DNA of 64,000 bases from Flavobacteriales bacterium (GTDB taxonomy: Bacteria > Bacteroidota > Bacteroidia > Flavobacteriales_F > PHOS-HE28): the NCBI GenBank assembly GCA_038234075.1, contig JBBSUV010000012.1, positions 22,616 to 86,615 of the forward strand, given 5' to 3'. Position 1 is the stretch's first letter; every line of letters starts with the position of its first letter. The notes under the pieces are model-generated. The model did not search any database. It was not told the DNA's origin and saw nothing but the letters and a program-made list of their open reading frames with translations. This document shows, piece after piece, positions 16,450-54,045 of the stretch. Position numbers and translations under genes: made by a program.

Positions 16450-18021
16450 TCAGTTCTTAATGAATTTAAGCGTGTAGGTATTGGACTTGAAGATCAGATG
16501 AATAAAGTGGATCCCTTTGGTAAGTCCGGAGACATCGATCCGGTGAGCCTGGTCAATTGCTACGCTTGTTGACGTGCCGAGTAACGTGGTGATCTGAATG
16601 TCCTGTAGGTCTGGATCGTTATCCATTCCTTCGATGGTCAGCAAGTCGCCAACAGGATTGGGGAATAGTTGAATGTCCCTTCGTAGTGAAGGATGGTCGC
16701 TTATAGACGTTGCCGTGTCAACTTGATAGACCGTGATCTTGTCGGCGTCCGTACCTCCGTTATTGATCAGATAGATCGATCGGCCATCATTGGATACAGC
16801 GATGTCCCTCAATCTGCCGTTCAGTGCCTGGTCCTCGCCGAAGAACTTTTTCGGATTTGGATCTGAAGCTGTTGATGGAACAAGTTCTCCACTCGCTTGA
16901 AGTTTGAATTGATAGACCTCTCTCTCGGTGGATACACCCTCTTTTAATGTAACGACCAACAAACTGTTGTTCCATTGAGGGATGCCATCGCTGCCGTAGT
17001 AGATCCCTCCCGAAGGAGCTACAGTGCACCAATCCTCCGGCACCTCTGAACTGACAGCAGTGGTACACCACGCGAATAGTGGATCGACCAAGGAGTCATT
17101 CGGGACCGATGGATCAGGGACATAGTTGGCGGCGAAATCACCTTCCCCGGGATAGCTGTTGTCATCCCGATAGCCGCGAACATTCTTCCAGCCATAGTTC
17201 ATTCCCTTGTAAAGCACATTGATCTCATCATCGGTCCGGTCGCCATGTTCAATATCATAGACCAGGTCCAGGGTCGGGTTATACATCAAGCCCTGCGGAT
17301 TGCGATGCCCGCGGGTGAAGAAGGAGTTCCCGGCTATCGGGTTGTCCGAAGGGATGGAGCCGTCTACATTGAAGCGATGGATCTTGCCATTCTGAGTGGT
17401 TACATCCTGTGCGAAATTGTTCGGATTTGTGGATTGGGGCGAATAGCATTCGGGTGAGTTCTGCTCCGATCTCCCATTGTCACCAACAGAGAGGAACAGG
17501 TACGATGTGCCATTTTGCTTGATCGCCATTAAGCGGCCACCCAGGTGGTCATAGCCGGTAGTGATCGAGTTGACAACGTTGGTGTCACTGACCACCGAGT
17601 TGGTGGCAGCGCTCCACTTGAGCCTCTTGACACGGAACTTGGTAGCAGGTGCCGACGCGCTTCCGGAGTTATACGAATAGACGTAATAGATATACGAACT
17701 TGAGCTATCCATGAAGTCAGGATGTAGAGCCAGCCCAAGGGTTCCTGCGCCTATGGAGAATTCAGGACAGAGCAGCGAGTTCTCAAGTGGTGATCCGGAG
17801 AAATAGTCCGGAGCAGTATAGACAACCATTTTGCTCCCATCAGCTGGATCAACCCGAATGACCTTCCCTCCCGACTCAGTGAGCCAAAGAAAATTGTCGG
17901 GGCCGTATGTGATCTCCCATGGCGTGGAAAGTGCCGTTGGGAGTTCCGTGCGAATGAACGTCTGGGACTTCACTGGAACTGATGAGGCAAGTAAAATGCA
18001 GAATAGTAGAATGGGCTTCAT
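16450..18021 (-). CDS. T9SS-secreted PQQ-dependent glucose/sorbosone dehydrogenase-family protein
   Basis: PWEITYGPD, HLGGRL, RGHRNPQGL, NYGW motifs and a T9SS CTD. Confidence 0.85.
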   Translation of the reverse strand: MKPILLFCILLASSVPVKSQTFIRTELPTALSTPWEITYGPDNFLWLTESGGKVIRVDPADGSKMVVYTAPDYFSGSPLENSLLCPEFSIGAGTLGLALHPDFMDSSSSYIYYVYSYNSGSASAPATKFRVKRLKWSAATNSVVSDTNVVNSITTGYDHLGGRLMAIKQNGTSYLFLSVGDNGRSEQNSPECYSPQSTNPNNFAQDVTTQNGKIHRFNVDGSIPSDNPIAGNSFFTRGHRNPQGLMYNPTLDLVYDIEHGDRTDDEINVLYKGMNYGWKNVRGYRDDNSYPGEGDFAANYVPDPSVPNDSLVDPLFAWCTTAVSSEVPEDWCTVAPSGGIYYGSDGIPQWNNSLLVVTLKEGVSTEREVYQFKLQASGELVPSTASDPNPKKFFGEDQALNGRLRDIAVSNDGRSIYLINNGGTDADKITVYQVDTATSISDHPSLRRDIQLFPNPVGDLLTIEGMDNDPDLQDIQITTLLGTSTSVAIDQAHRIDVSGLTKGIHFIHLIFKSNTYTLKFIKN

Positions 18022-18100
18022 GGGTGCAGTAGTTAGTGTTTGTTGACCGATCCGCCATGTCCAATATGTGGAGCTCTTTCGAGGCTCGGGCCGTGACCTA

Positions 18101-18586
18101 CTACTCACCACCGGCCGGTTCCCAGAGCTCCACCTTGTTCCCTTCCGGATCCAGGATGTGGACGAACTTCCCATAGTCGGATGCCTCGATGCTATCCACG
18201 ATGGTCACGCCTTCCTTCTTCAGTTGCTCCACCAAACCTTCCAAGTTCTCCACCCGGTAGTTGATCATGAAGTCCTTGGTTGAAGGTTCAAAATAGGTGG
18301 TCTTCTCGGCGAAGGTGCTCCATTGCGTAACGCCCTTTTTTGTCGGGTCGGCATCTTCCCTCCACGCAAAACTGGCCCCGTACTGGCCAGCGTCAATGCC
18401 CAAGTGGGTGTTGTACCACGCATTCATCTGCTTGGGGTCCTTGCACTTGAAGAAGACGCCTCCGATGCCTGTTACCTTTTTCATTATTGCCGTGTCGTTG
18501 GGTGGTTCGGTTGTGCCTGCTTTGAATGCGAAGCCCAGACCGAAAGTAGCGACCAAGGCGAGCGTGACCAGTAAGGGACTCTTCAT
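18101..18586 (-). CDS. VOC/glyoxalase-family protein
   Basis: KVTGIGGVFFK, FMINYRVENL and YGKFVHILDPEGNKVELWEP motifs. Confidence 0.88.
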   Translation of the reverse strand: MKSPLLVTLALVATFGLGFAFKAGTTEPPNDTAIMKKVTGIGGVFFKCKDPKQMNAWYNTHLGIDAGQYGASFAWREDADPTKKGVTQWSTFAEKTTYFEPSTKDFMINYRVENLEGLVEQLKKEGVTIVDSIEASDYGKFVHILDPEGNKVELWEPAGGE

Positions 18587-18625
18587 GGGTAAACGAGGTT
18601 TGCGCTGATGTTTGCGACGAGCCAC

Positions 18626-18802
18626 TTATTCCCGGCGCGTTCTAGCATAGGCAAAGAACACGATGCCGAGCCCCATGAATGCCGGGCCTAACGTGGTGAA
18701 CACAAGCTGGTGCGAGGCCAGGCCCACCACAAGGAAGGTCACTCCGCAACCGAGGAGGACCACCCCAAGTGCCTGCAGCTGTTTTGCCTTCTTCTCATCC
18801 AT
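18626..18802 (-). CDS. Small 2-TM membrane protein (58 aa, absent from the ORF track)
   Basis: Manual translation MDEKKAKQLQALGVVLLGCGVTFLVVGLASHQLVFTTLGPAFMGLGIVFFAYARTRRE*. It fills the gap 8 bp after the upstream gene. Confidence 0.65.
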   Translation of the reverse strand: MDEKKAKQLQALGVVLLGCGVTFLVVGLASHQLVFTTLGPAFMGLGIVFFAYARTRRE

Positions 18803-18810
18803 CAAAGTGC

Positions 18811-19092
18811 TTAGATCTTCTCCAGGATCAAGGTCTTCATCCGGGTCACCTCCGCCTTGGTGAAGCCATGCGCTCGGATGTTCCCTTCGCCGGTGGTGTT
18901 GATGATGATGGTGGAGTAACCCACCAGCGGACAGTCGATGTCCACGGAAGAGATCCGCGTGAAAGGGATCGTCTTCTCATTACCGCTGAAGAGGCTGGGC
19001 ACTTGCAGGGTGACCCCTTGTTGGTCGATGATGACCTTCGAGGGAAAGACGCGGTTGCCTTCCGCGAGACGTGCAGCGATGAATGTTTCCAT
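18811..19092 (-). CDS. Bacterial PH-domain protein
   Basis: 93 aa, GNRVFPSKVIID...EKTIPFTRISSVDI pattern. Confidence 0.7.
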   Translation of the reverse strand: METFIAARLAEGNRVFPSKVIIDQQGVTLQVPSLFSGNEKTIPFTRISSVDIDCPLVGYSTIIINTTGEGNIRAHGFTKAEVTRMKTLILEKI

Positions 19093-19161
19093 GGTGATGC
19101 AAGGTAGGTGCGCATTCGTTCAATGCCGTTGGAGGATCCTGAGTCTTATTCTGAAAGAGGC

Positions 19162-19576
19162 TTGAAGTGCTCCTCTCCTTCCTTCAAGGAGGGGCAGGGG
19201 TGGTGCATTCAGTGAGCGGTCAATGACCACCCCGAACCTCTCCTTCCAAAAAGGAGGGGAGACCCATGGGAGCGCTGACGAAGTCGCAGCGCTATTAATG
19301 GATGGATCAGTCATGGTCAGTCGTCGAGGGTTGAAGTTCTCCCCTCCTTCCTTCAAGGAGGGGCAGGGGCAATGTCATTAAGTTAAGCTAGCTGTCATAC
19401 CGGGCGAAGACCCGGGGTCACACGCGGCAGGCATTCGCGGCCAACGTTCTCCGGCGCTGGTGGGTGTGATACCGGGTCCGCCACCCTGCGGGTCTTCGCC
19501 CGGCATGACAATCCTACTTCCTCCGTTTCCTTAACTTAATGACATTGGGGGCAGGGGTGGTGCATTCAGTGAGCGG
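19162..19576. repeat. REP/BIME-like cluster of CCCCTCCTT-N-AAGGAGGGG hairpins
   Basis: Direct copies at 19162-19219 and 19331-19369 plus 19558-19576. An inverted copy lies at 19226-19261. Confidence 0.8.
19370..19547. mobile_element. 178-bp MITE with 18-bp TIR and 10-bp target-site duplication
   Basis: TIR CAATGTCATTAAGTTAAG (19370-19387) and its exact reverse complement (19530-19547). GGGGCAGGGG is duplicated at 19360-19369 and 19548-19557. Confidence 0.85.
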
Positions 19577-19878
19577 ACCACGGGCACCCGCTTATTCTAT
19601 GAAATCTCCAAACGCTTGTTGAGCTTTTTCAGGCATGAGGAACACCGGGCTTGGGCGGGAAGTCCGTTGGTCCTCCCGCCCATGGCCGAAGCCCGTTGTT
19701 CGTCGGGCTTATCCTTGGCGAGTTGCTCTCAAGCATTGCCCGCTTCCGTTTGGCCCGATGTGGACCATTTACCTCGAAAAGAAGATAAGACACCATCGTC
19801 CTGTTGCGTCAGGGGCCATCGCCCAGCAATGTCGTACCTTGTATGTTCCCTCGGCAAACCTTTCAATCCGACCTCCCC

Positions 19879-20238
19879 ATGCTGAAGCCCCTGATCTGGA
19901 TCACCGCATTGCTCTTCTTCTCCGCGAATGCCATCGGACAAACGCCCGGCAGCAACCCATCCAGTGCAGTGCTGCAGAGCTGCTTCATTGGCACGCCGGC
20001 GGCGATGTGGACCAAGTTGAAGCTCACCAGCGATCAGCAGGAGCGCCTGAGCCGGGTGCAGGAGGCTTGCAAAACGGAATGCGATGTGGCCAATGGCAAG
20101 AAGGAGAACGATGGCATCTCCCATTCCAGCGGCGATATGATCATCACCGAGCTGAAGAACATCCTGACCATGGACCAGTATGCCGCTTGGTTGGCCTATT
20201 GCGAGGGCTCCGGCGGAAAGGGGACTACCCCGAAGTGA
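19879..20238 (+). CDS. Small secreted helical protein
   Basis: Signal peptide MLKPLIWITALLFFSANAIG, 119 aa, four Cys. Confidence 0.7.
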   Translation: MLKPLIWITALLFFSANAIGQTPGSNPSSAVLQSCFIGTPAAMWTKLKLTSDQQERLSRVQEACKTECDVANGKKENDGISHSSGDMIITELKNILTMDQYAAWLAYCEGSGGKGTTPK

Positions 20239-20261
20239 AGGGGCGCGTTGGGAATTCCGTG

Positions 20262-20338
20262 TGGAGACTCCGGATCTGGGCCCGGGTGAAAACCATCGGT
20301 TCCAAGAACGAATGTCATTCCGGGCTTGACCCGGAATC
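20262..20338. repeat. Inverted pair of REP-like hairpins (GTCATTCCGGGCTTGACCCGGAATC type)
   Basis: 20313-20338 TGTCATTCCGGGCTTGACCCGGAATC, with a degenerate inverted partner at about 20262-20290, between convergent genes. Confidence 0.6.
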
Positions 20339-20369
20339 GCGCAAATGCCATGACCGGAGTACTCCCACA

Positions 20370-21371
20370 CTATTCCTTCCAGCGCCTTTCCCTCCACTCC
20401 TTCTGTGCTTCCTTGGAAAGGAATGTCCAAGCCACGATCCGGGTGACCTTATTCCCCGTCCCCATGGAGATGGTCTTCACCTGGCTGGCTTCGCTCTCGT
20501 CCAAGAGCCGATGGATCCCTTTCAGGTTGGAATGCTTGGATACCATGGTTGTGAACCAGAAGCAGCTTTGCGAGAACAGCTTACTCTCTCTGATCATGTT
20601 CTGGATGAATCCATATTCCCCGCCATCGGTGATCAGCTCATTGCTGATCCCTGAAAAGTTGAGCACGGGGACCTTTGCCTTTTTACCCGACAGGTTCTCC
20701 ACTTTTCGTCGTGTTCCATGTTGGGCCTCTTCCAGCGAAGCATGAAAAGGAGGGTTGCACAGGGTGATGTCGATCCGCTCTTCTTTGGTCAGTATGCCGT
20801 AGAAAATGGCCTTCGGGTCCTTTTGCAACCGAAGCTCGATCTTGCCGTGAAGGGACGGGTTGGACCGGATGATATGCTCCGCCGAGGCGATCGACCGGGG
20901 ATCGATATCCGAACCGATGAAGCGCCAGCCATATTCAGTAACACCGGTGATAGGATAGATGCAGCTGGCCCCCACGCCAACATCCAGGCAAGTGATCTTG
21001 TCGCCAAGGGGGATCGTGCCCCCATTGCTTCCACCTACCAGGTCAGCAAGGTGGTGGATGTAGTCTGCCCGACCCGGTACGGGTGGGCACAGATTGTCAT
21101 CCGGGAAGTCCCAGTGCTTGATCCCGTAATAGTGGTTGAGCAAGGCTTTGTTCAAGAGCTTAACGGCGCGTGGATCGGAAAAGTCGATGGACTCGGCTCC
21201 GAACTCGTTCACCCTTACATGGCTCTTCAATTCAGGTATAGCAGTTATTAAAGCGCTCAGATCATATCGCTCCCGGTTCTTGTTCCGAGGATGGAGTCTT
21301 CCCTTCTCCTTCACCCCTCCCGCCGGGTCTCCGCCTCGGGACCCTGCGGTCCGTGCTTTTCCGTGGCCCAT
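20370..21371 (-). CDS. rlmF: 23S rRNA (adenine1618-N6)-methyltransferase
   Basis: LHPRNKNRERYD, LCPPVPGRADYIH, LDVGVGASCIY and CNPPF motifs. Confidence 0.95.
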   Translation of the reverse strand: MGHGKARTAGSRGGDPAGGVKEKGRLHPRNKNRERYDLSALITAIPELKSHVRVNEFGAESIDFSDPRAVKLLNKALLNHYYGIKHWDFPDDNLCPPVPGRADYIHHLADLVGGSNGGTIPLGDKITCLDVGVGASCIYPITGVTEYGWRFIGSDIDPRSIASAEHIIRSNPSLHGKIELRLQKDPKAIFYGILTKEERIDITLCNPPFHASLEEAQHGTRRKVENLSGKKAKVPVLNFSGISNELITDGGEYGFIQNMIRESKLFSQSCFWFTTMVSKHSNLKGIHRLLDESEASQVKTISMGTGNKVTRIVAWTFLSKEAQKEWRERRWKE

Positions 21372-21386
21372 GTCGCGCTAACCCCG

Positions 21387-22361
21387 TCAATCCAACGTCA
21401 ACAGGATCTTTCCAATATGATCGCTGCTTTCCATCAGCCGATGTGCATCTGCCGCCTCTTCCAGCGGGAACGTCTTGTAGATCACAGGATGGATCTGTTT
21501 GGAACGGAACAGCGGCCAGATGTGCTGCTCCACCTCCTGCGCGATCCGGGTCTTCACCTCGGCGGTTTGGGGCTTCAGAAAGCTCCCTGTCAAGGTGAGG
21601 TTCTTGCTCATGATGGTGCGCAGATCGATGCTGACCTCCGTGCTCTTCATGCCGTTGATATAGAGAAGTCGGCCCTCTTTATTCAGGATGGCCAGGTTCT
21701 TCTGGGTGTAGTCCCCACCGACCATGTCCAGGATCACATCGATCTGCTCCGCTTTCCAGACTTCTTCGAACGCTTCCTTCTTGTAGTTGATCGCCGTTCC
21801 GAGGTGCATGCTGTTCAGGAATGCGATCTTGGCATCGCTGCCGGCGGTGGTGTAGACCGTGCAGCCCCAAGCCTTGGCCATCTGCAGGCCCATGGTGCCG
21901 ATGCCGCTCGTACCGCCGTGGATCAACAGCTTCTCACCGGGTTGGAGCTTGCCCAAGTGGAACACGTTGAACCAGACCGTGAACACGGTTTCCGGGATCG
22001 CGGCGGCGTCCGTTAAACTGATCCCTTCCGGCACGGGAAGGCAATGGGAGCTGTCCACCGCCACATATTCGGCATAGCCGCCACTTGCGATCAGCGCGCA
22101 GACGGCATCGCCAACCTGCTTGTCCGTTACCCTTGCGCCCACCGCTGTGATCACCCCGGAAACTTCCAAGCCCGGGATCAAGTTGTCCCCGGATCCCTTG
22201 CCGTAGGTATCGGTGTTCTGTCGCGTGATCACATCGCTGCGATTGACGCCCGCAGCTTTCACCTTGATCAATACCTGGTCGGCTTCAAGTTCCGGCGTTG
22301 GCGTTTCCTGTAACTGCAGTACTTCCGGCCCACCGGATCGGGTGATATGGATCGCTCTCAT
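21387..22361 (-). CDS. NAD(P)H:quinone oxidoreductase, PIG3 family
   Basis: AAGVNRSD, GGYAEY, LIHGGTSGIGT and HIGKILL motifs. Confidence 0.9.
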   Translation of the reverse strand: MRAIHITRSGGPEVLQLQETPTPELEADQVLIKVKAAGVNRSDVITRQNTDTYGKGSGDNLIPGLEVSGVITAVGARVTDKQVGDAVCALIASGGYAEYVAVDSSHCLPVPEGISLTDAAAIPETVFTVWFNVFHLGKLQPGEKLLIHGGTSGIGTMGLQMAKAWGCTVYTTAGSDAKIAFLNSMHLGTAINYKKEAFEEVWKAEQIDVILDMVGGDYTQKNLAILNKEGRLLYINGMKSTEVSIDLRTIMSKNLTLTGSFLKPQTAEVKTRIAQEVEQHIWPLFRSKQIHPVIYKTFPLEEAADAHRLMESSDHIGKILLTLD

Positions 22362-22625
22362 GGGATATTCCTTAGGGAGCATTAAAGGTACCGTGGTTTG
22401 AAGCCGTGCGAAGAACGTACCTCGTCGGCATTATCGCTAATCCACTTCTCGTGCCGTAGTTGCAGTGCCCGCCTGAGGCGGATCAAAACGCCGGAGACTC
22501 GGCAAACAGCCGAGCGCCGGGGTGGAGCTCACTTTTTAGTAGGGCCGGAAAAGACTTGCGGGAGCGAGGGAGATCAACGATAATGAAAAGTTATGACAGA
22601 AAAGAAAGAAGGTTATTGAACCGTG

Positions 22626-23882
22626 TCAGCCATATATCTTATGAAATACTAACCTCATCAAGAACCCTGCTAAAATTAATGAAAAACCAGAGAACGCTAC
22701 CTTTAAAGGCAAAGAAGCGGACATTGCTAAGCACCCCACTAAGCCTAGTATAGGAATTATCCTGCCATACATCCTATCTTGCTTCGGCTGTTTTATAGCC
22801 GCTATATTAGTAATACTATAATAGAGCAGAATCGTAAAAGTCGCAGCTCTAACAATAAATTCGAACGAACCTATAAGGGTGATCATCAAAATTACAAGAC
22901 CTGTAAAAAGTATTCCAATATGTGGAACCCGATATTTTTCATGTATGCTTTTAAAAGTAGGTGGTAAGTCATTCCTTCTGCCCATGGCTAACATCACTCT
23001 GCTTATCCCCAATACCTGACTCAACAGCACACCTAACATTGCAGTGGATGCGCCAATGGTTATAACGATACTGATCGCCGGAGTGTTCAACGCAGCAGCA
23101 ACAACTTGTAACGGCGAGGTGCTGTTTGCCATATTCTCTGTTCCTATAACACCAATAGCTACAACAGAAATTATACCATAGAGAATAATCGCTGTTACTA
23201 TAGTGATCATGATCGATCTTGGGATCGTTTTCTTGGGGTCCACTACTTCTTCTGCAAGTGTTGCTATTCGCCCATATCCTGTAAAAGCAAAAAATAAAAG
23301 CGCAGCAGCTTCTGCAATTCCTGAAATGCCAAATGGAGCGAAGGGTTTGAAGTTTTCAAGATTCACCTCAGAAATACCGCTAAAAGCCAGATATATAAGA
23401 GAAAGTAAAGTTCCAGTAACGATCACAAGATTTAAAATTCCGGCTTTCTTAATGCCACAGTAATTGGCCACTGTCACAAGAATGACAGCTAAAACAGAAA
23501 AAGTCAATGGAGAAGCAATTGGCATCAGTTGGTAGAAATAACTACCAAAGCCTATTGCAACAAATCCTGCCCCTGCAAGCTTACTCACTAAAAACATCCA
23601 TCCTGCCAAAAATCCAGAGGAAGGACTTAACAATATGTACCCATATTCGTAAGTGCCGCCCGATTGTGGATACTTGGCTGCCAATTGCGCAGAGCTTAAA
23701 GCATTAAAAGTGGCAATGATCCCGGCAATTAGAAGACCCACAAGAAAGGCAGGGCCCGAAACTCCAGCTGCTATCCCGGTAACCACGAAAATGCCTGCAC
23801 CAATTATTGCGCCCAAACCAATGCCCACCGCATCTTTTAAGGTTAGTGATCTTAAAAGATGCTGCTCATCTAAATCCTTCAT
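22626..23882 (-). CDS. APC-family amino acid permease (AT-rich island)
   Basis: GLGAIIGAGIF, FFAFTGY and EEVVDPKKTIPRS motifs. GC is visibly lower than the host. Confidence 0.88.
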   Translation of the reverse strand: MKDLDEQHLLRSLTLKDAVGIGLGAIIGAGIFVVTGIAAGVSGPAFLVGLLIAGIIATFNALSSAQLAAKYPQSGGTYEYGYILLSPSSGFLAGWMFLVSKLAGAGFVAIGFGSYFYQLMPIASPLTFSVLAVILVTVANYCGIKKAGILNLVIVTGTLLSLIYLAFSGISEVNLENFKPFAPFGISGIAEAAALLFFAFTGYGRIATLAEEVVDPKKTIPRSIMITIVTAIILYGIISVVAIGVIGTENMANSTSPLQVVAAALNTPAISIVITIGASTAMLGVLLSQVLGISRVMLAMGRRNDLPPTFKSIHEKYRVPHIGILFTGLVILMITLIGSFEFIVRAATFTILLYYSITNIAAIKQPKQDRMYGRIIPILGLVGCLAMSASLPLKVAFSGFSLILAGFLMRLVFHKIYG

Positions 23883-24351
23883 GCGTTCTTATTTAGTATA
23901 AGCCGATCCAATGAAAATTTTCCGGCACCCTTAAGTATAAGAAAAAGGCATCCCAACCACATTGCAAGATCAGTACGGATCTCGTGCGCCATACTCCAGA
24001 ATCCATAGGTTTTGAGTTCTCGTAGCACAAAAGGTCCGAAACTTGCGCCAAAAGCAATCGGGATTTTAGTGACAATTATTGATACTGTCATGTTGATGAT
24101 CATTGCTATAGCTGCTGCACGGGTTAAAAATCCGAGAAGAAGTAATACACCGCACACAATTTCAAAAACGCCTACGAAATGTGCGAAAAGATCAGGATCG
24201 GGAATCCCATTTTTACAAATCGTTCCGGTCCGAGAACCGCAGGGAATAAAAATTTCTGAATGCCTTCGGAAAGAAAAACGGAGCCTACCATCAAACGAAT
24301 GATGATAGTAGTTTTTGAATTGTCGGTGTGCGTAATTCTTTGATACATCAT
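23879..24351 (-). pseudogene. DoxX-family membrane protein with a -1 frameshift (real or sequencing error)
   Basis: N-terminal frame (IIRLMVGSVFLSEGIQKF) stops early. Adding one base at about 24208-24215 (AAAAATGGG) restores ...GIPDPDLFAHFVGVFEIVCG. The span is 473 nt (3n-1). Confidence 0.8.
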
Positions 24352-24418
24352 TATTTATGGGTCTATATTTTGCCTACTTCGCCGAAAGCAAATATGTTTT
24401 ACACAGTACAAAGTAAGA

Positions 24419-25612
24419 TCAGGAACCAAATTCAAAGTTTAGGATCATCGTGCCCACTAAGGCATTATTAAATTCACCACCGGGGTTAATTACGTACTGT
24501 GCATCCGCTTTTACATTTAACCAATGTGTAACGACGAACTTGTAGAATGCTTCCAAGTTGGTTTCGTCTTGTTCGGGTAAATGTAATTCTGGACTTAAGA
24601 ACGCATAATGAGAAGAAAAGCCGAAGGCATCATCACTACGCTTGGCTGATGGCCCCGTCCAAACTACGCCACCGCCGTAATGGGCATAAACGGCGGCAAG
24701 GTGGTGGTCAGTTAAACCATATACAAGAAACATCCGTATTCCCCTATCACTTGTGTTGTGCGCAATAGGTTGCCACAAGGTTTGGTCGAATATTGCGTAA
24801 ATACCATTTGTACCTTGTACGCTCTTGCCATCAAAGTTGGAAAAAGTTCCTGTATGCTGCCATACGCCGAATTTTAGATTTCCATCTTTTTGTAAGCTTG
24901 ATAAATGATTCCACTTTAACCCCAACTCACTTAAAAGCAATACCCCATTTGTCGTTGGTTGTAGAGAGACGGGGTCTCCATGAAAATTGAGAAACCGCGC
25001 ATTTTGATTGGCGTAATCCATTGCCAGGTTTATGTAAAATAATTTGCCCGAGGAAATGAAGATATTAATACTTGGGACTGGATCCGGAAATGTGGGAAAA
25101 ACGAAGAACGTTGGCGTAACCTGCGTTGAGCTATTGATAAATTCAAGTCCGTTGTCAATAACGCTAAATTCTGAATTGGTATCTATCTTGCCTATTTTTA
25201 ATCGTAATTTAGAATTAAACAGCTCCTGTTGATACCAAAATTCCAGCATCTGCACAAAGGGAAATGAATTATGTTTATCAAACACCTGAAAATCGCCAAT
25301 TAGTTTTTCAGAAGGATCATCTCCGGCGTGATACTCAAGGTCGGCATAGATAACAGCATTTTTTATACCGATTGATTTTTGTAAATCGAAATTTATATTC
25401 GCATCAAAAGTGGAAGCATAAGCTGTACCTGTTTTAATGCCACCTTCAAAATTATTATAACCTTCCAATGTTTCGCTGATGCCAAAGGATATTCCATTTG
25501 TACTTAAAATCGTAAAAATATTCTTTTGTTTAATGGAATCCTGAGCAGTAGAGGTGGTGGATAAGCTCATTAAGATGAATATTACAGAAAAGTATTTGAG
25601 AATGAACTTCAC
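24419..25612 (-). CDS. OprB-family carbohydrate-selective porin
   Basis: GTG at 25612 gives the signal peptide MKFILKYFSVIFILMSLSTTSTA. Also WYQQELF...LRLKIGKID and VKADAQYVINPGG, ending in a terminal F-x-x. Confidence 0.8.
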   Translation of the reverse strand: MKFILKYFSVIFILMSLSTTSTAQDSIKQKNIFTILSTNGISFGISETLEGYNNFEGGIKTGTAYASTFDANINFDLQKSIGIKNAVIYADLEYHAGDDPSEKLIGDFQVFDKHNSFPFVQMLEFWYQQELFNSKLRLKIGKIDTNSEFSVIDNGLEFINSSTQVTPTFFVFPTFPDPVPSINIFISSGKLFYINLAMDYANQNARFLNFHGDPVSLQPTTNGVLLLSELGLKWNHLSSLQKDGNLKFGVWQHTGTFSNFDGKSVQGTNGIYAIFDQTLWQPIAHNTSDRGIRMFLVYGLTDHHLAAVYAHYGGGVVWTGPSAKRSDDAFGFSSHYAFLSPELHLPEQDETNLEAFYKFVVTHWLNVKADAQYVINPGGEFNNALVGTMILNFEFGS

Positions 25613-25669
25613 CTTCCGCAGGGTCTCCACTTCGGGACTCTGTGGTCTGTGCTCTTCCGTGGCTGTTCT

Positions 25670-25753
25670 ATGAATAAGGTCGATCACAGTCTCATCACCC
25701 CGAAGCAGGTACACAGCGATGTTTGTGTCAACGACATACCTAGTTCCACTCAT
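25670..25753 (-). pseudogene. Truncated PIN/VapC toxin N-terminus
   Basis: MSGTRYVVDTNIAVYLLRGDETVIDLI is a PIN strand-1/DTN motif. It overlaps the antitoxin stop by 14 nt, and similarity ends after about 27 aa. Confidence 0.7.
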
Positions 25754-25919
25754 CCCGCATCCGTTGCTGGATCATCAAGGAATCCTCTTTCAGCTTGATC
25801 GTTCCGGCGAACTGTCGGATGTCAGGTAGTTCCCGACGCTTGCGGGCACGCGGTTTCAGCTTCTTCAACGCTGCGGCGATCTGCCGCTTCGTCATGCCTT
25901 CCCGGATGATGATAGCCAT
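25740..25919 (-). CDS. Putative antitoxin (Bacteroidota PIN-associated small protein)
   Basis: 59 aa basic protein ending FAGTIKLKEDSLMIQQRMRDEW. A TAACTTTG -7 box lies at 25937-25944. Confidence 0.65.
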   Translation of the reverse strand: MAIIIREGMTKRQIAAALKKLKPRARKRRELPDIRQFAGTIKLKEDSLMIQQRMRDEWN

Positions 25920-25970
25920 GTGTTCTGCTTCAAGACCAAAGTTAGGGCACAAGGAGGATGGAAGCCATTT

Positions 25971-27836
25971 TCACTTCACCACCAACACCGGCACCTTCAC
26001 CCTATGCCTTACCGCATCCACGGTAGCGCCGAAGAGCAGGTCCATCAGCCCGCGGTGGCCGTGTGAGCCCATCACGAGGAGGTCGGCCTCGCTCTTGTTC
26101 ACCAAGTTGGCAATGGCCGCCACCGGACTGCCTTGGCCCACCACCGCCTGTGCGGAATAGCCTGCGGCACGGAGCTTTTCGGCGTAGAGTTCCAGGTTGG
26201 TGGCGTCGTCCACCGCCTCGCGGTCTTCGGTGAGCGCGCCGAGGTAGTGTGCGGCGGCGCTTTCGGTGATGTGGATCAGGATGTACTCGGCCACCTTTCC
26301 GCCCTGGGCGATGGCCGCGTTCAGCACGCGCTCGTCCATCGCCTTGAACTCCACGGTCACAGCGATGCGCTGCGGCGGGCGCTGCTCCTGCACCTTCAGC
26401 TCCGGCAGGGTACTGTCGATATGTCGCTTGGCGGGTCTCAGCTTCGCAAAGAACGGCTTCACGGTGATGTAGAGCAGCAGCAGTGCGAAGAGGATGATGA
26501 TGGGGATCACGAGGAACTCCACCCAGAACACATGTGCACCGCTTCCTTCGAGCCAGCCCTGCACCTCCTGCAGCACGAGTTGTGCGTTCAGCACCACGAT
26601 GATGATCGCCGTGGCCCACGACAGCAGTTTCACCCACGGTTTGATGGCGAAGGTGCCCATGCGTTTCTTGTCGCTGGTGAAGTGGATCAGCGGGATCACG
26701 GCGAAGCCAAGCTGCAAGCTGAGCACCACTTGGCTGAGGACGAGGAGCTGGCCCAACGAATCCGGCCCGAAATAGATGATGCTGATGACCGCGGGGATGA
26801 TGGCGAGCGAGCGCGTGATGAGCCGCCGCAGCCACGGGCGGATGCGCAGGTCGAGGTAGCCTTCCATCACGATCTGCCCGGCGAGCGTGCCGGTGATGGT
26901 GCTGCTTTGCCCCGCGCCGATGAGGGCGATGGCGAAGAGCGCCGGGGCCATGGTGCCGAAGAGTTCGCCGAGCAGTTCGTGCGCCTGGTCGATCTCCGCC
27001 ACGTCGTAATGCCCTGCGGTATGGAAGGCGGCCGCGGCGAGGATGAGAATGGCGGCATTGACGAAGAAGGCGAGGTTGAGCGCGATGGTGGTGTCGAAGA
27101 AGTTGAAGCGGATGGCCTCGCGCATGCCCTTGTCGGTGCGCTCGAAGCGGCGCGTCTGCACCAGCGCGCTGTGGAGGTAGAGATTGTGCGGCATCACGGT
27201 GGCGCCGATGATGCCGATGGCGATGTAGAGCGCCTTGTCGGAAAGCGCGGAAGGGATGAGGCCTTTGAGCACATCGCCCACCACGGGTTCCACGATGAAC
27301 ATTTCCGCGAGGAAGGAGAGGCCGATGAGGGTGACGATGGAGACGATGAAGATCTCCAGCATGCGCATGCCCTTGTTCATCAGGAAAAGGATGAGCAGCG
27401 TGTCCAATGCGGTGATGAGCACGCCCCAGAGCACGGGCAGGCCGAAGAGGAGGTTGAGGCCGATGGCCATGCCCACCACCTCGGCGAGGTCGCAGGCGGC
27501 GATGGCGATCTCGGCCATCACGTACAGCGGGATGTTCACGATGGGCGGGTAGGTATGCCTGCTGGCCTGGGCGAGGTCGAGGCCGCGCACGATGCCGAGG
27601 CGGGCGCTGAGGCTTTGCAGCAGTAGCGCCATGAGGTTGCTCATCAGCAGCACCCAGATCAGCTGGTAGCCGAAGGCCGACCCGCCGGCGATGTCCGTGG
27701 CCCAGTTGCCGGGGTCCATGTAGCCCACGCTCACCAGGTAGGCAGGGCCGAGAAAGGCGAGAATGCGGCGCCAGCCCTTCGCGGTGGGAATGGCCACGCT
27801 GGAATGCGCGTCGCCGAGGGAGCGCCGGTCGTGCAT
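25971..27836 (-). CDS. mntH: Nramp-family Mn2+/Fe2+ transporter with C-terminal USP domain
   Basis: GYMDPGNWATD and GATVMPHNLYLHS motifs. C-terminal LLVMGSHGHRG is USP-like. Confidence 0.93.
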   Translation of the reverse strand: MHDRRSLGDAHSSVAIPTAKGWRRILAFLGPAYLVSVGYMDPGNWATDIAGGSAFGYQLIWVLLMSNLMALLLQSLSARLGIVRGLDLAQASRHTYPPIVNIPLYVMAEIAIAACDLAEVVGMAIGLNLLFGLPVLWGVLITALDTLLILFLMNKGMRMLEIFIVSIVTLIGLSFLAEMFIVEPVVGDVLKGLIPSALSDKALYIAIGIIGATVMPHNLYLHSALVQTRRFERTDKGMREAIRFNFFDTTIALNLAFFVNAAILILAAAAFHTAGHYDVAEIDQAHELLGELFGTMAPALFAIALIGAGQSSTITGTLAGQIVMEGYLDLRIRPWLRRLITRSLAIIPAVISIIYFGPDSLGQLLVLSQVVLSLQLGFAVIPLIHFTSDKKRMGTFAIKPWVKLLSWATAIIIVVLNAQLVLQEVQGWLEGSGAHVFWVEFLVIPIIILFALLLLYITVKPFFAKLRPAKRHIDSTLPELKVQEQRPPQRIAVTVEFKAMDERVLNAAIAQGGKVAEYILIHITESAAAHYLGALTEDREAVDDATNLELYAEKLRAAGYSAQAVVGQGSPVAAIANLVNKSEADLLVMGSHGHRGLMDLLFGATVDAVRHRVKVPVLVVK

Positions 27837-39176: not shown

Positions 39177-39260
39177 ACCGGAGTGGCGGAATTGGTAGAC
39201 GCGCACGTTTCAGGGGCGTGTGACCGTAAGGTCGTAAGGGTTCGAGTCCCTTCTTCGGTA
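39177..39260 (+). tRNA. trnL: tRNA-Leu(CAG)
   Basis: Acceptor ACCGGAG/CTTCGGT, D-loop TGGTA, anticodon arm CACGT-TTCAGGG-GCGTG, long variable arm and GGTTCGAGTCC. CCA is not encoded. TATATTTG box at 39141-39148. Confidence 0.95.
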
Positions 39261-39391
39261 CTGACAGAGCGGCGCGAGCCGCTTTGTTCGTTCTCAGGGT
39301 TTGCCGAAGCCTCATGTCGATCTTGGTCGCAGCCTCGTTTCCTTCAGCAACCGTTCGCGCCATCGTTCGCGGCTACCTTTGATCGGACCAG

Positions 39392-53636: not shown

Positions 53637-53757
53637 TGCAGGATCGGCGGAAGGCGTTATCTGCGTCCATCTGTGTCATCTGCGGTTTTTCCCTTCTCAG
53701 CGGAAGAAAGCCATCCATGCCGCAAAGCACATCCGCGGATCCTGCTACCTTCGCCGC

Positions 53758-53927
53758 GCTGATGATCCCCGTCTTAACAAGCGGGGTTAAAAGGGAATCA
53801 GGTGCGATACCTGAGCTTTTCCTGAAGCTGTAAGCCTGAATGCCGAACCGGCAATAAGCCACTGTCAACCGCAAGGAAGATGGGAAGGCGCCGGAGAGGA
53901 AGGCGAGCCAGAAGACCTGTCACTAGC
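53758..53927 (+). ncRNA. Cobalamin (AdoCbl) riboswitch
   Basis: AAAAGGGAA-TCAGGTG..A..CCTGA, CTGTAA, GCCACTG, GGGAAG and B12 box GAGCCAGAAGACCTG. TACCTTCG promoter at 53746. A terminator-like hairpin lies at about 53942-54018. Confidence 0.92.
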
Positions 53928-54045
53928 ACAATGGATGATCGCTTCCAGGAAAGAGGCGTGCTCCTGTGCCCTCGGTCCGCGTCGGCATGTAAGCACGGTT
54001 ATTCCTGGAGGTTCTTTAGAACGAAACCTCAACAAGGAATAATCA

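Follow-up and report, generated by a model that had tools for sequence, protein, structure and literature searches.

The stretch of DNA that we analysed (64,000 nucleotides, referred to here as the window) contains a MITE in a 786-bp intergenic region between two divergent genes, one at 18811-19092 on the minus strand and the other at 19879-20238 on the plus strand, and this location is a divergent promoter region. The positions of the element, of the repeats in which it lies and of the neighbouring genes are summarized in Table 1. The sequencing runs that contain the source sequence are mostly soil and rhizosphere metagenomes. We compared the contigs of public soil and rhizosphere runs (X1, X2 and so on) with the region; X1 is the run holding the source sequence.

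Table 1. Features of the locus and their positions in the window
Feature	Position	Strand	Remarks
Upstream neighbour gene	16450-18174	minus	Por_Secre_tail domain in public contig, consistent with Bacteroidota
93-aa ORF	18811-19092	minus	no Pfam match; called as gene in public assembly
Intact neighbouring host-repeat unit	19157-19262	plus	'empty' reference
Hairpin A of intact unit	19172-19194		
GGGGTGGT…ACCACCCC hairpin of intact unit	19197-19233		
Hairpin A' of intact unit	19237-19259		
Left half of disrupted host-repeat copy	19326-19369	plus	family D2; 93% identical to 19157-19200
Hairpin A of disrupted copy, CCCCTCCTT-CCTTC-AAGGAGGGG	19341-19363		within left half
Left copy of 10-bp target-site duplication, GGGGCAGGGG	19360-19369	.	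directly abuts left TIR
MITE	19370-19547	.	178 bp, non-coding, bounded by perfect 18-bp TIRs
Left TIR, CAATGTCATTAAGTTAAG	19370-19387	plus	18-mer common to IS4-family IS ends elsewhere
Inner palindromic element, TGTCAT…ATGACA	19393-19510	.	nested or captured REP-like filler
Right TIR	19530-19547	minus	perfect reverse complement of left TIR, 18/18 complementary
Right copy of 10-bp target-site duplication, GGGGCAGGGG	19548-19557	.	directly abuts right TIR
Right half of disrupted host-repeat copy	19548-19589	plus	family D3; 88% identical to 19191-19232
119-aa ORF	19879-20238	plus	hydrophobic N-terminus suggesting secretion
Solo TGTCAT-type hairpin, AATGTCATTCCGGG-CTTGA-CCCGGAATCG	20311-20339	plus	same class as MITE-interior arms
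rlmF	20370-21371		Pfam Methyltransf_10; a glyoxalase-like gene also lies beyond the divergent genes

The segment 19589-19763, to the right of the disrupted repeat copy, is also repetitive, its depth in X1 being 85-190 against 22 in the unique flanks, and separate contigs of 112-116 nt match it at about 92%, so that the intergenic spacer is a cluster of at least three repeat families. A strong hairpin inside this segment (19646-19688) gave rise to an Rfam match to mir-645 at 19629-19712, which we rejected as spurious. Elsewhere in the window, positions 22000-26000 have a low GC content (0.42-0.46 versus about 0.57 elsewhere) and include genes for an amino-acid permease (22626-23882, minus strand) and an OprB-family porin (24419-25753, minus strand); this stretch is possibly acquired DNA. 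A cobalamin riboswitch (53746-53938, 106 bits) and a tRNA-Leu(CAG) (39177-39261) are ordinary features.

An earlier note on this DNA, made from the letters alone, described a 178-bp element with perfect 18-bp TIRs and a 10-bp target-site duplication, and each of these was found exactly where the note had placed it. A search of the window for CAATGTCATTAAGTTAAG with up to three mismatches returned the two TIRs only, and no shuffle among 100 gave a match. The inverted pair noticed in the interior was likewise confirmed, its arms (19393-19414 and 19489-19510) being 22 nt long and 95% complementary. The interior of the element has a GC content of 65%, and the whole MITE as single-stranded DNA has a predicted fold of -54 kcal/mol (z = -9.5 against shuffles). 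The 178-bp element contains no ORF, a 52-aa ORF at 19223-19381 entering it by 12 nt only, and no promoter or terminator was detected within it by a simple scan. Searches of Rfam, in E-value mode over 18500-20900 and in gathering mode over the whole window, placed no family at the element. The note had also stated that the window holds no cognate transposase; a tblastn search with 10 transposases of the clade described below found no IS4-like transposase in the 64 kb (best E 0.04).

The element thus has the properties expected of a MITE: it is shorter than about 400 bp, lacks a transposase gene and has TIRs and a target-site duplication, while the metagenome contigs provide indirect evidence of several sites and empty sites, and full-length relatives in other genomes provide autonomous ISs with common ends. 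No passenger gene, as expected of a mobile insertion cassette, lies between the ends in the 178 bp. The element is a clean textbook example and not a new kind of element.

The two halves of the host repeat on either side of the MITE allow the empty site to be reconstructed. When 19326-19369 was joined to 19558-19600, the resulting sequence matched the intact copy at 19157-19232 with 89.5% identity over 76 nt, which bears out the earlier proposal that removal of the element restores the neighbouring repeat. The 29 nt rightwards from the duplication (GGGGCAGGGGTGGTGCATTCAGTGAGCGG) are identical in the disrupted and intact copies, and GGGGCAGGGG is found once in the intact repeat, at 19191-19200. 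The insertion point is the junction of two hairpins and not the inside of a stem; the duplication includes four G from the end of hairpin A and four from the start of the GGGGTGGT…ACCACCCC hairpin. The predicted fold of the intact unit (19146-19266) is -24.9 kcal/mol (z = -2.5). Within the 64-kb window the host repeat is confined to this intergenic region, its multi-copy status being derived from the depth of metagenome contigs and not from the window. The unit is about 90-105 nt long, extragenic and palindromic, with three hairpins, whereas REPs in the strict sense are 20-40 nt long. Accordingly, of the earlier designation of the host as a REP, the palindromic and multi-copy character (the latter by depth) could be retained, but a multi-hairpin unit of this length is better described as REP-like than as a REP of the classical 35-nt kind. 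In the sequence beside the hairpins we noticed no GTAG-type tetranucleotide, the kind of conserved 5' motif that goes with REPs associated with a RAYT (REP-associated tyrosine transposase).

The inner palindrome is of a class that is also found outside MITEs. A blastn comparison of the MITE interior with the TIR-bearing genome loci showed that it is common to none of them among the 120 matches listed. The arm motif TGTCATNCCGGGCGAAGACCCG, on the other hand, occurs in at least 120 metagenome contigs, and among the matches listed the TIR was absent from 119 of 120 of these, with one weak TIR-like string. In most cases TGTCATNCCGGGCGAAGACCCG marks the left side of a palindrome about 97 nt long, consisting of TGTCATCCCGGGCGAAGACCCGGGATCCA, about 40 nt and TGGATCCCGGnTCAAGnCCGGGATGACA; 13 standalone copies are exactly 97 nt long (among the matches listed). 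Positions 19393-19510 of the window have the architecture of this standalone palindrome with a longer right arm. The copies of the palindrome (L122-L241, e.g. L142, L197, L238) are often in tandem or clustered, and their habitats are freshwater, soil, termite-gut, marine and sludge metagenomes. Contigs from X7 and X4 begin at 19391-19393 and have flanks other than the TIR, which indicates that standalone relatives of the palindrome are present in the same habitats.

The resemblance between the MITE interior and the hairpin at 20313, which had been pointed out in the earlier note, consists of TGTCATNCCGGGC and the hairpin that follows it, with 3 matches in the window versus 0.6 expected and an equal number in 3 of 100 shuffles. 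Such a resemblance is weak alone, but the wider scans show that both sequences belong to the widespread TGTCAT hairpin class. The 9-mer AATGTCATT, which is common to the TIR and the 20313 hairpin, was dismissed as a coincidence, the standalone TGTCAT elements being without a conserved AA upstream. We found no relevant paper with a name for the TGTCAT element in the searchable literature. 'REP-like cargo', the term used previously, is a fair description of the palindrome, whether this was enclosed when the MITE was formed or inserted later. As for the proposed capture of a REP pair, the REP-like nature of the filler was upheld, the class standing alone without the TIR; the data do not distinguish capture from a nested insertion.

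In order to trace the ends of the element, the TIR 18-mer was searched in a collection with one genome per species, where it was found in at least 120 contigs from several phyla. Among the Bacteroidota the carriers include Flavobacterium, Aquimarina, Chitinophagaceae, Ferruginibacter, Pedobacter and others, and among the Bacillota they include Clostridium, Lachnospiraceae, Erysipelotrichaceae, Streptococcus, Lactobacillus and Paenibacillus; Chloroflexota, Gammaproteobacteria (Thiotrichaceae and Methylococcaceae) and a cyanobacterium also have it. Pairing of left and right ends among the matches listed gave 12 full-length elements of 1433-1697 bp with one long ORF each, and a second size class of many short elements of 72-346 bp. 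The TIR, which the note had regarded as an element end that should recur, therefore bounds both ISs and MITEs in these genome contigs.

Several observations bear on the family of the full-length elements. Two of the long ORFs matched the NCBIfam model NF033592 ('IS4 family transposase') with 142 and 158 bits (cut-off 115), and the same two matched Pfam DDE_Tnp_1. The signature Y(2)R(3)E(6)K, which defines the IS4 family (PMC2266710), was read from the sequences of L005, L044 and L090 as YFRRWGVETNISVQK, YFKRWKVETFYDELK and YFKRWGIETSFRDLK. The published end signatures are -AATR--------WTW with a duplication of 10-13 bp for the IS4 subgroup and CA------T with a duplication of 8-10 bp for IS4Sa (PMC2266710, Table 1), and CAATGTCATTAAGTTAAG agrees with every specified position of the IS4 signature and of the looser IS4Sa signature. 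IS4 of Escherichia coli K-12, the type element of both the family and the subgroup, with the transposase InsG, has 18-bp ends in the same frame as the window TIR: its ends TAATGCCAGTCAGTTAAG and TAATGCCGATCAGTTAAG, or TAATGCC(A/G)(G/A)TCAGTTAAG, have 14 and 13 of their 18 positions, respectively, in common with the window TIR. From the transposases of the relatives, the end signature and the comparison with IS4, we therefore assign the ends of the MITE to the IS4 family, IS4/IS4Sa type. The autonomous IS with the same ends that the earlier note had called for thus exists in other genomes, and its parent family is IS4. No named IS was obtained for these ends, a tblastn search against plasmids giving only the generic 'IS4 family transposase' and ISPa1635 at about 29% identity, and no relevant paper on the TIR string was found in the literature search.

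The clade differs from the known systems in several respects. InsG is homologous to the clade transposases (E 1e-7 to 1e-14, with DDE and YREK motifs), but the two are only 20-22% identical, and the duplications of the clade are 9-10 bp compared with 11-13 bp for IS4; the duplication of IS4 in MG1655 is 12 bp and that in the window 10 bp, both being about one helical turn. IS4 codes for InsG, whereas the window element is a non-coding derivative. The MIC231 and IS231-derived cassettes of the Bacillus cereus group (IS4 family, IS231 subgroup) likewise have IS4-family ends around unrelated DNA; they are mobilised in trans with 10-12-bp duplications, and IS231 has a target preference (PMC2266710). 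MIC231, however, has passenger genes and CAT ends of the IS231 type, in contrast to the 178-bp window element, which has no gene, IS4-type ends and a host among the Bacteroidota. In Tn5 (IS50) and Tn10 (IS10), both of the IS4 family, a short terminal pair is enough for cut-and-paste transposition, which generates 9-bp duplications. Similarly, the mutual similarity of the clade elements ends exactly after 18 bp, although Tn5 and Tn10 belong to other IS4 subgroups with other end sequences.

A duplication with at most one mismatch was seen in 35 of the 54 TIR pairs for which both flanks were available among the matches listed, so other copies do carry target-site duplications, as the note had anticipated. 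Their lengths were 10 bp in 23 cases, 9 bp in nine and 8, 11 and 12 bp in one each, and the 10-bp duplication in the window is typical of the clade. Many of the targets are centres of small palindromes (e.g. CCCTTCGGG, CCCTTTAGGG and AAATCACTAAAGCAATTGCTTTAGTGATTT): at 29% of the sites the duplication forms the centre of a dyad run of 5 bp or more, compared with 5.6% of 5000 control positions (Mann-Whitney p = 1.3e-4). Unlike many clade targets, the duplication in the window is not a dyad centre. Two elements, L064 2402-4078 and L010 2872-3119, have no direct duplication, and their flanks are mutually reverse complementary, over a perfect 20 nt in L064 (CAACCCCCTACCCCCAATCT and AGATTGGGGGTAGGGGGTTG); their sites may be the middle of a long palindrome, or else the inverted repeats themselves may be 38 bp long. 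A contig labelled as a Nanoarchaeota MAG also carries a 174-bp MITE with the ends of this clade (L097 2772-2945), which may reflect a mistake in binning or a genuine presence in another domain.

ISs that target REPs (IS1397/ISKpn1 of the IS3 family; IS621 and IS1594 of the IS110 family) likewise insert repeatedly at one defined point of a palindromic repeat between genes, and a passage of Delihas (2011, PMC3184786), citing Tobes and Pareja (2006), gives REPs as integration sites of ISs such as IS1397, IS621 and IS1594. Those ISs are autonomous and belong to other families with other chemistries, whereas the present element is a MITE with IS4-type ends, and its target is a multi-hairpin unit of about 100 nt.

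Evidence for mobility comes from the metagenomes, with copy numbers and alternative flanks taken from short metagenome contigs. In X1, the depth was 22 in the unique flanks, 628-906 in the left half of the host repeat, 450-585 in its right half, 600-700 in the TIRs, about 570 in the inner arms and 230-290 in the MITE centre. The values over the MITE are thus 10-30 times that of the unique flanks. Because the values for both repeats are far above that of the unique flanks, the MITE and the host repeat are both multi-copy by depth, which in a metagenome may pool several organisms. A 779-nt contig of X1 that extends from 19552 onwards ends at about 20330, as expected at repeated sequence.

The empty site is represented by contig 19 of X3 (487 nt), which covers 19548-19910 with 3 mismatches and continues into the downstream gene. 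Directly before 19548 this contig has …GGTTGAAGTTTCCCCTCCTTTCTTCAAGGA, that is, the left half of the repeat and no MITE; 30 nt are visible on this upstream side, and the other 94 nt were unaligned to the window even at 80% likeness. The junction of the left half to 19548 fits a single copy of GGGGCAGGGG, and the contig is an empty-site allele from a related strain, of the kind that the earlier note had proposed to look for. Short contigs of X5 and X7 have the same MITE-free junction, and a MITE-free copy of the repeat is also present elsewhere in X1 (19364 joined to 19554, depth 23). A look-up of the empty site by the exact protein of the upstream gene led to the X1 contig only, which ends inside the first repeat copy, and exact-protein look-ups with the downstream gene (three start choices) and with rlmF found no contig.

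The MITE was also found at other places and in the other orientation. Record 22 of X5 joins the left end of the MITE (19370-19460, one mismatch) to an unrelated flank, …ACCACCCCCAACCC, and right-end contigs of X5 run on into ACCCCAACCC…, the duplication at that other site being about 10 bp. Record 7 of X1, record 25 of X5 and record 7 of X15 contain the right end of the MITE with the right repeat half; beyond 19581 their sequences differ from the window, and they represent insertions at other loci with the host repeat. Record 4 of X15 consists of the reverse complement of 19573-19548, then the TIR and then 19388-19474, i.e., an inverted MITE at the same repeat position, which can only have arisen by a separate insertion. 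This junction does not come from a chimaeric assembly, since the assembly graph has 31-mers, which reach across the 18-bp TIR. The contig sequences support recurrent insertion at one position of the host repeat, in accordance with the earlier statement that the element targets another REP family: further copies of the host repeat have the MITE at this position, in one case inverted. Minimal MITEs were observed as well, one of 59 bp in X1 (19386 joined to 19530) and one of 72 bp in L059 (3763-3834), consisting of two TIRs and 23-36 nt of filler, which suggests that the ends alone can persist as an element.

These results are best explained by an IS4-derived MITE that is mobilised in trans, has a nested palindromic filler and prefers the host repeat, a reading to which we give a probability of nearly nine in ten. 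A DDE transposase of a full-length IS with the same 18-bp ends would bind both TIRs and move the element in trans, and the excision, by analogy with Tn5 and Tn10 of the IS4 family, would be of the cut-and-paste type. The element would then be joined to target cuts staggered by 10 bp, and repair of the gaps could account for the observed duplication of GGGGCAGGGG. The target is the multi-copy palindromic intergenic repeat, where the element landed at the junction of two hairpins, and other copies were hit independently at the same position. On this reading only the 18-bp ends derive from an IS, the GC-rich interior being a TGTCAT palindrome of the type that also stands alone, so that the MITE is a chimaera of AT-rich IS ends and host-type filler. 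As for the source of the transposase, four metagenomes were compared with the Ferruginibacter element L089; ISs with about 80-88% identity to it are present in X2 and X3, and a 4046-nt contig of X1 has two perfect TIRs 1442 bp apart, so that autonomous elements exist in the same communities. The 1442-bp IS could not be assigned to the source genome, the depth of its contig being 8.7 versus 22 for the source genome.

Two alternative explanations would deny that the 178-bp element moved by itself into this site. The halves of the host repeat and the MITE might form one larger repeat unit that spreads as a block, with the 'duplication' as part of the unit, and the several contigs in which the right end of the MITE is followed by the same right repeat half up to 19581 (record 7 of X1, record 25 of X5 and record 7 of X15) agree with this. 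A block of this kind, however, is contradicted by the MITE-free repeat copies in the window (19157-19262), in X1 (19364 to 19554) and at the orthologous site in X3, by the X5 copy of the MITE, which lies in sequence unlike the repeat and has a separate duplication of about 10 bp, by the copy inverted within the repeat in X15, and by the use of the same TIRs as boundaries of elements at unrelated sites in at least 120 genomes. Alternatively, the element might be what is left of a full-length IS that was inserted at this site and had its interior deleted there, without ever moving as a MITE; internal deletion is a general origin of MITEs, and full-length ISs with the same ends exist. Nevertheless, the junctions of TIR and interior occur with different flanks in X5 and X15, the depth of the interior in X1 is 10-25 times that of the unique flanks, and the interior, with its 65% GC and its TGTCAT palindrome, has nothing in common with the ISs of 28-46% GC. 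Because the contig evidence taken together rules against a fixed repeat-plus-MITE block and against decay of an IS in place, we regard both explanations as very improbable, one as much as the other.

A chance inverted repeat or a structured RNA gene, instead of a transposable element, would be in keeping with the strong predicted fold, but the TIR appeared in no shuffle, no Rfam family was found apart from the spurious miRNA match elsewhere, and the duplication, the empty site and the common IS ends all indicate transposition; this explanation retains next to no probability and is refuted. A different matter is whether the inner TGTCAT palindrome is itself a mobile or functional unit, such as a REP moved by another enzyme, that was inserted into a tiny pre-existing MITE. 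Standalone TGTCAT copies are widespread, some of them starting exactly at 19391-19393 (X7 and X4), and very small MITEs do exist (59 bp in X1 and 72 bp in L059), whereas no duplication is visible around 19393-19510 and no enzyme for the TGTCAT elements was identified. We consider such a later insertion possible, though less likely than not; it bears solely on which step came first and does not conflict with the IS4-derived MITE proposed above.

The wider pattern in the clade is of some interest. Transposases with an identical 18-bp end are only 24-28% identical between Bacteroidota (elements of 1.43-1.47 kb; L005, L044, L062, L089 and L093 were compared) and Bacillota (1.65-1.70 kb; L016, L064, L090, L095 and L100), the constancy of the end being partly a selection effect of a sample picked by the exact 18-mer. 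The interiors of 44 short elements (among the matches listed) fell into 32 unrelated clusters, and their GC content tracks that of the host (r = 0.83), the full-length ISs having 28-46% GC. This suggests, as a lead and not as a result, that nothing beyond the 18-bp ends is required and that host-type DNA has given rise to MITEs again and again. Tentatively, and at somewhat under even odds, we propose that one lineage of the IS4 subgroup has an identical 18-bp end although the identity of its transposases has fallen to 24-28% in at least four or five phyla; that this lineage, needing only the short end, continues to generate MITE families with host filler that are unrelated to one another; and that its targets are chosen by DNA structure (at or beside hairpins, REP-like repeats and terminators) and not by sequence.

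The importance of the finding for the source genome is small: a divergent promoter region is seen to contain a mobile, polymorphic site, which accounts for the assembly breaks at the locus. The current understanding of transposition is also unchanged. The analysis connects a MITE of a soil Bacteroidota with an IS4 lineage that extends across phyla, has an unusually constant 18-bp end and also leans towards insertion at palindromic sequences; these two aspects, the constancy of the end across phyla and the leaning towards hairpin targets, are the only ones that may merit follow-up. The constant 18-bp end is a convenient search key for the annotation of IS4-type MITEs, and the lineage lends itself to studies of the recognition of hairpin-rich targets by a transposase of the IS4 family.
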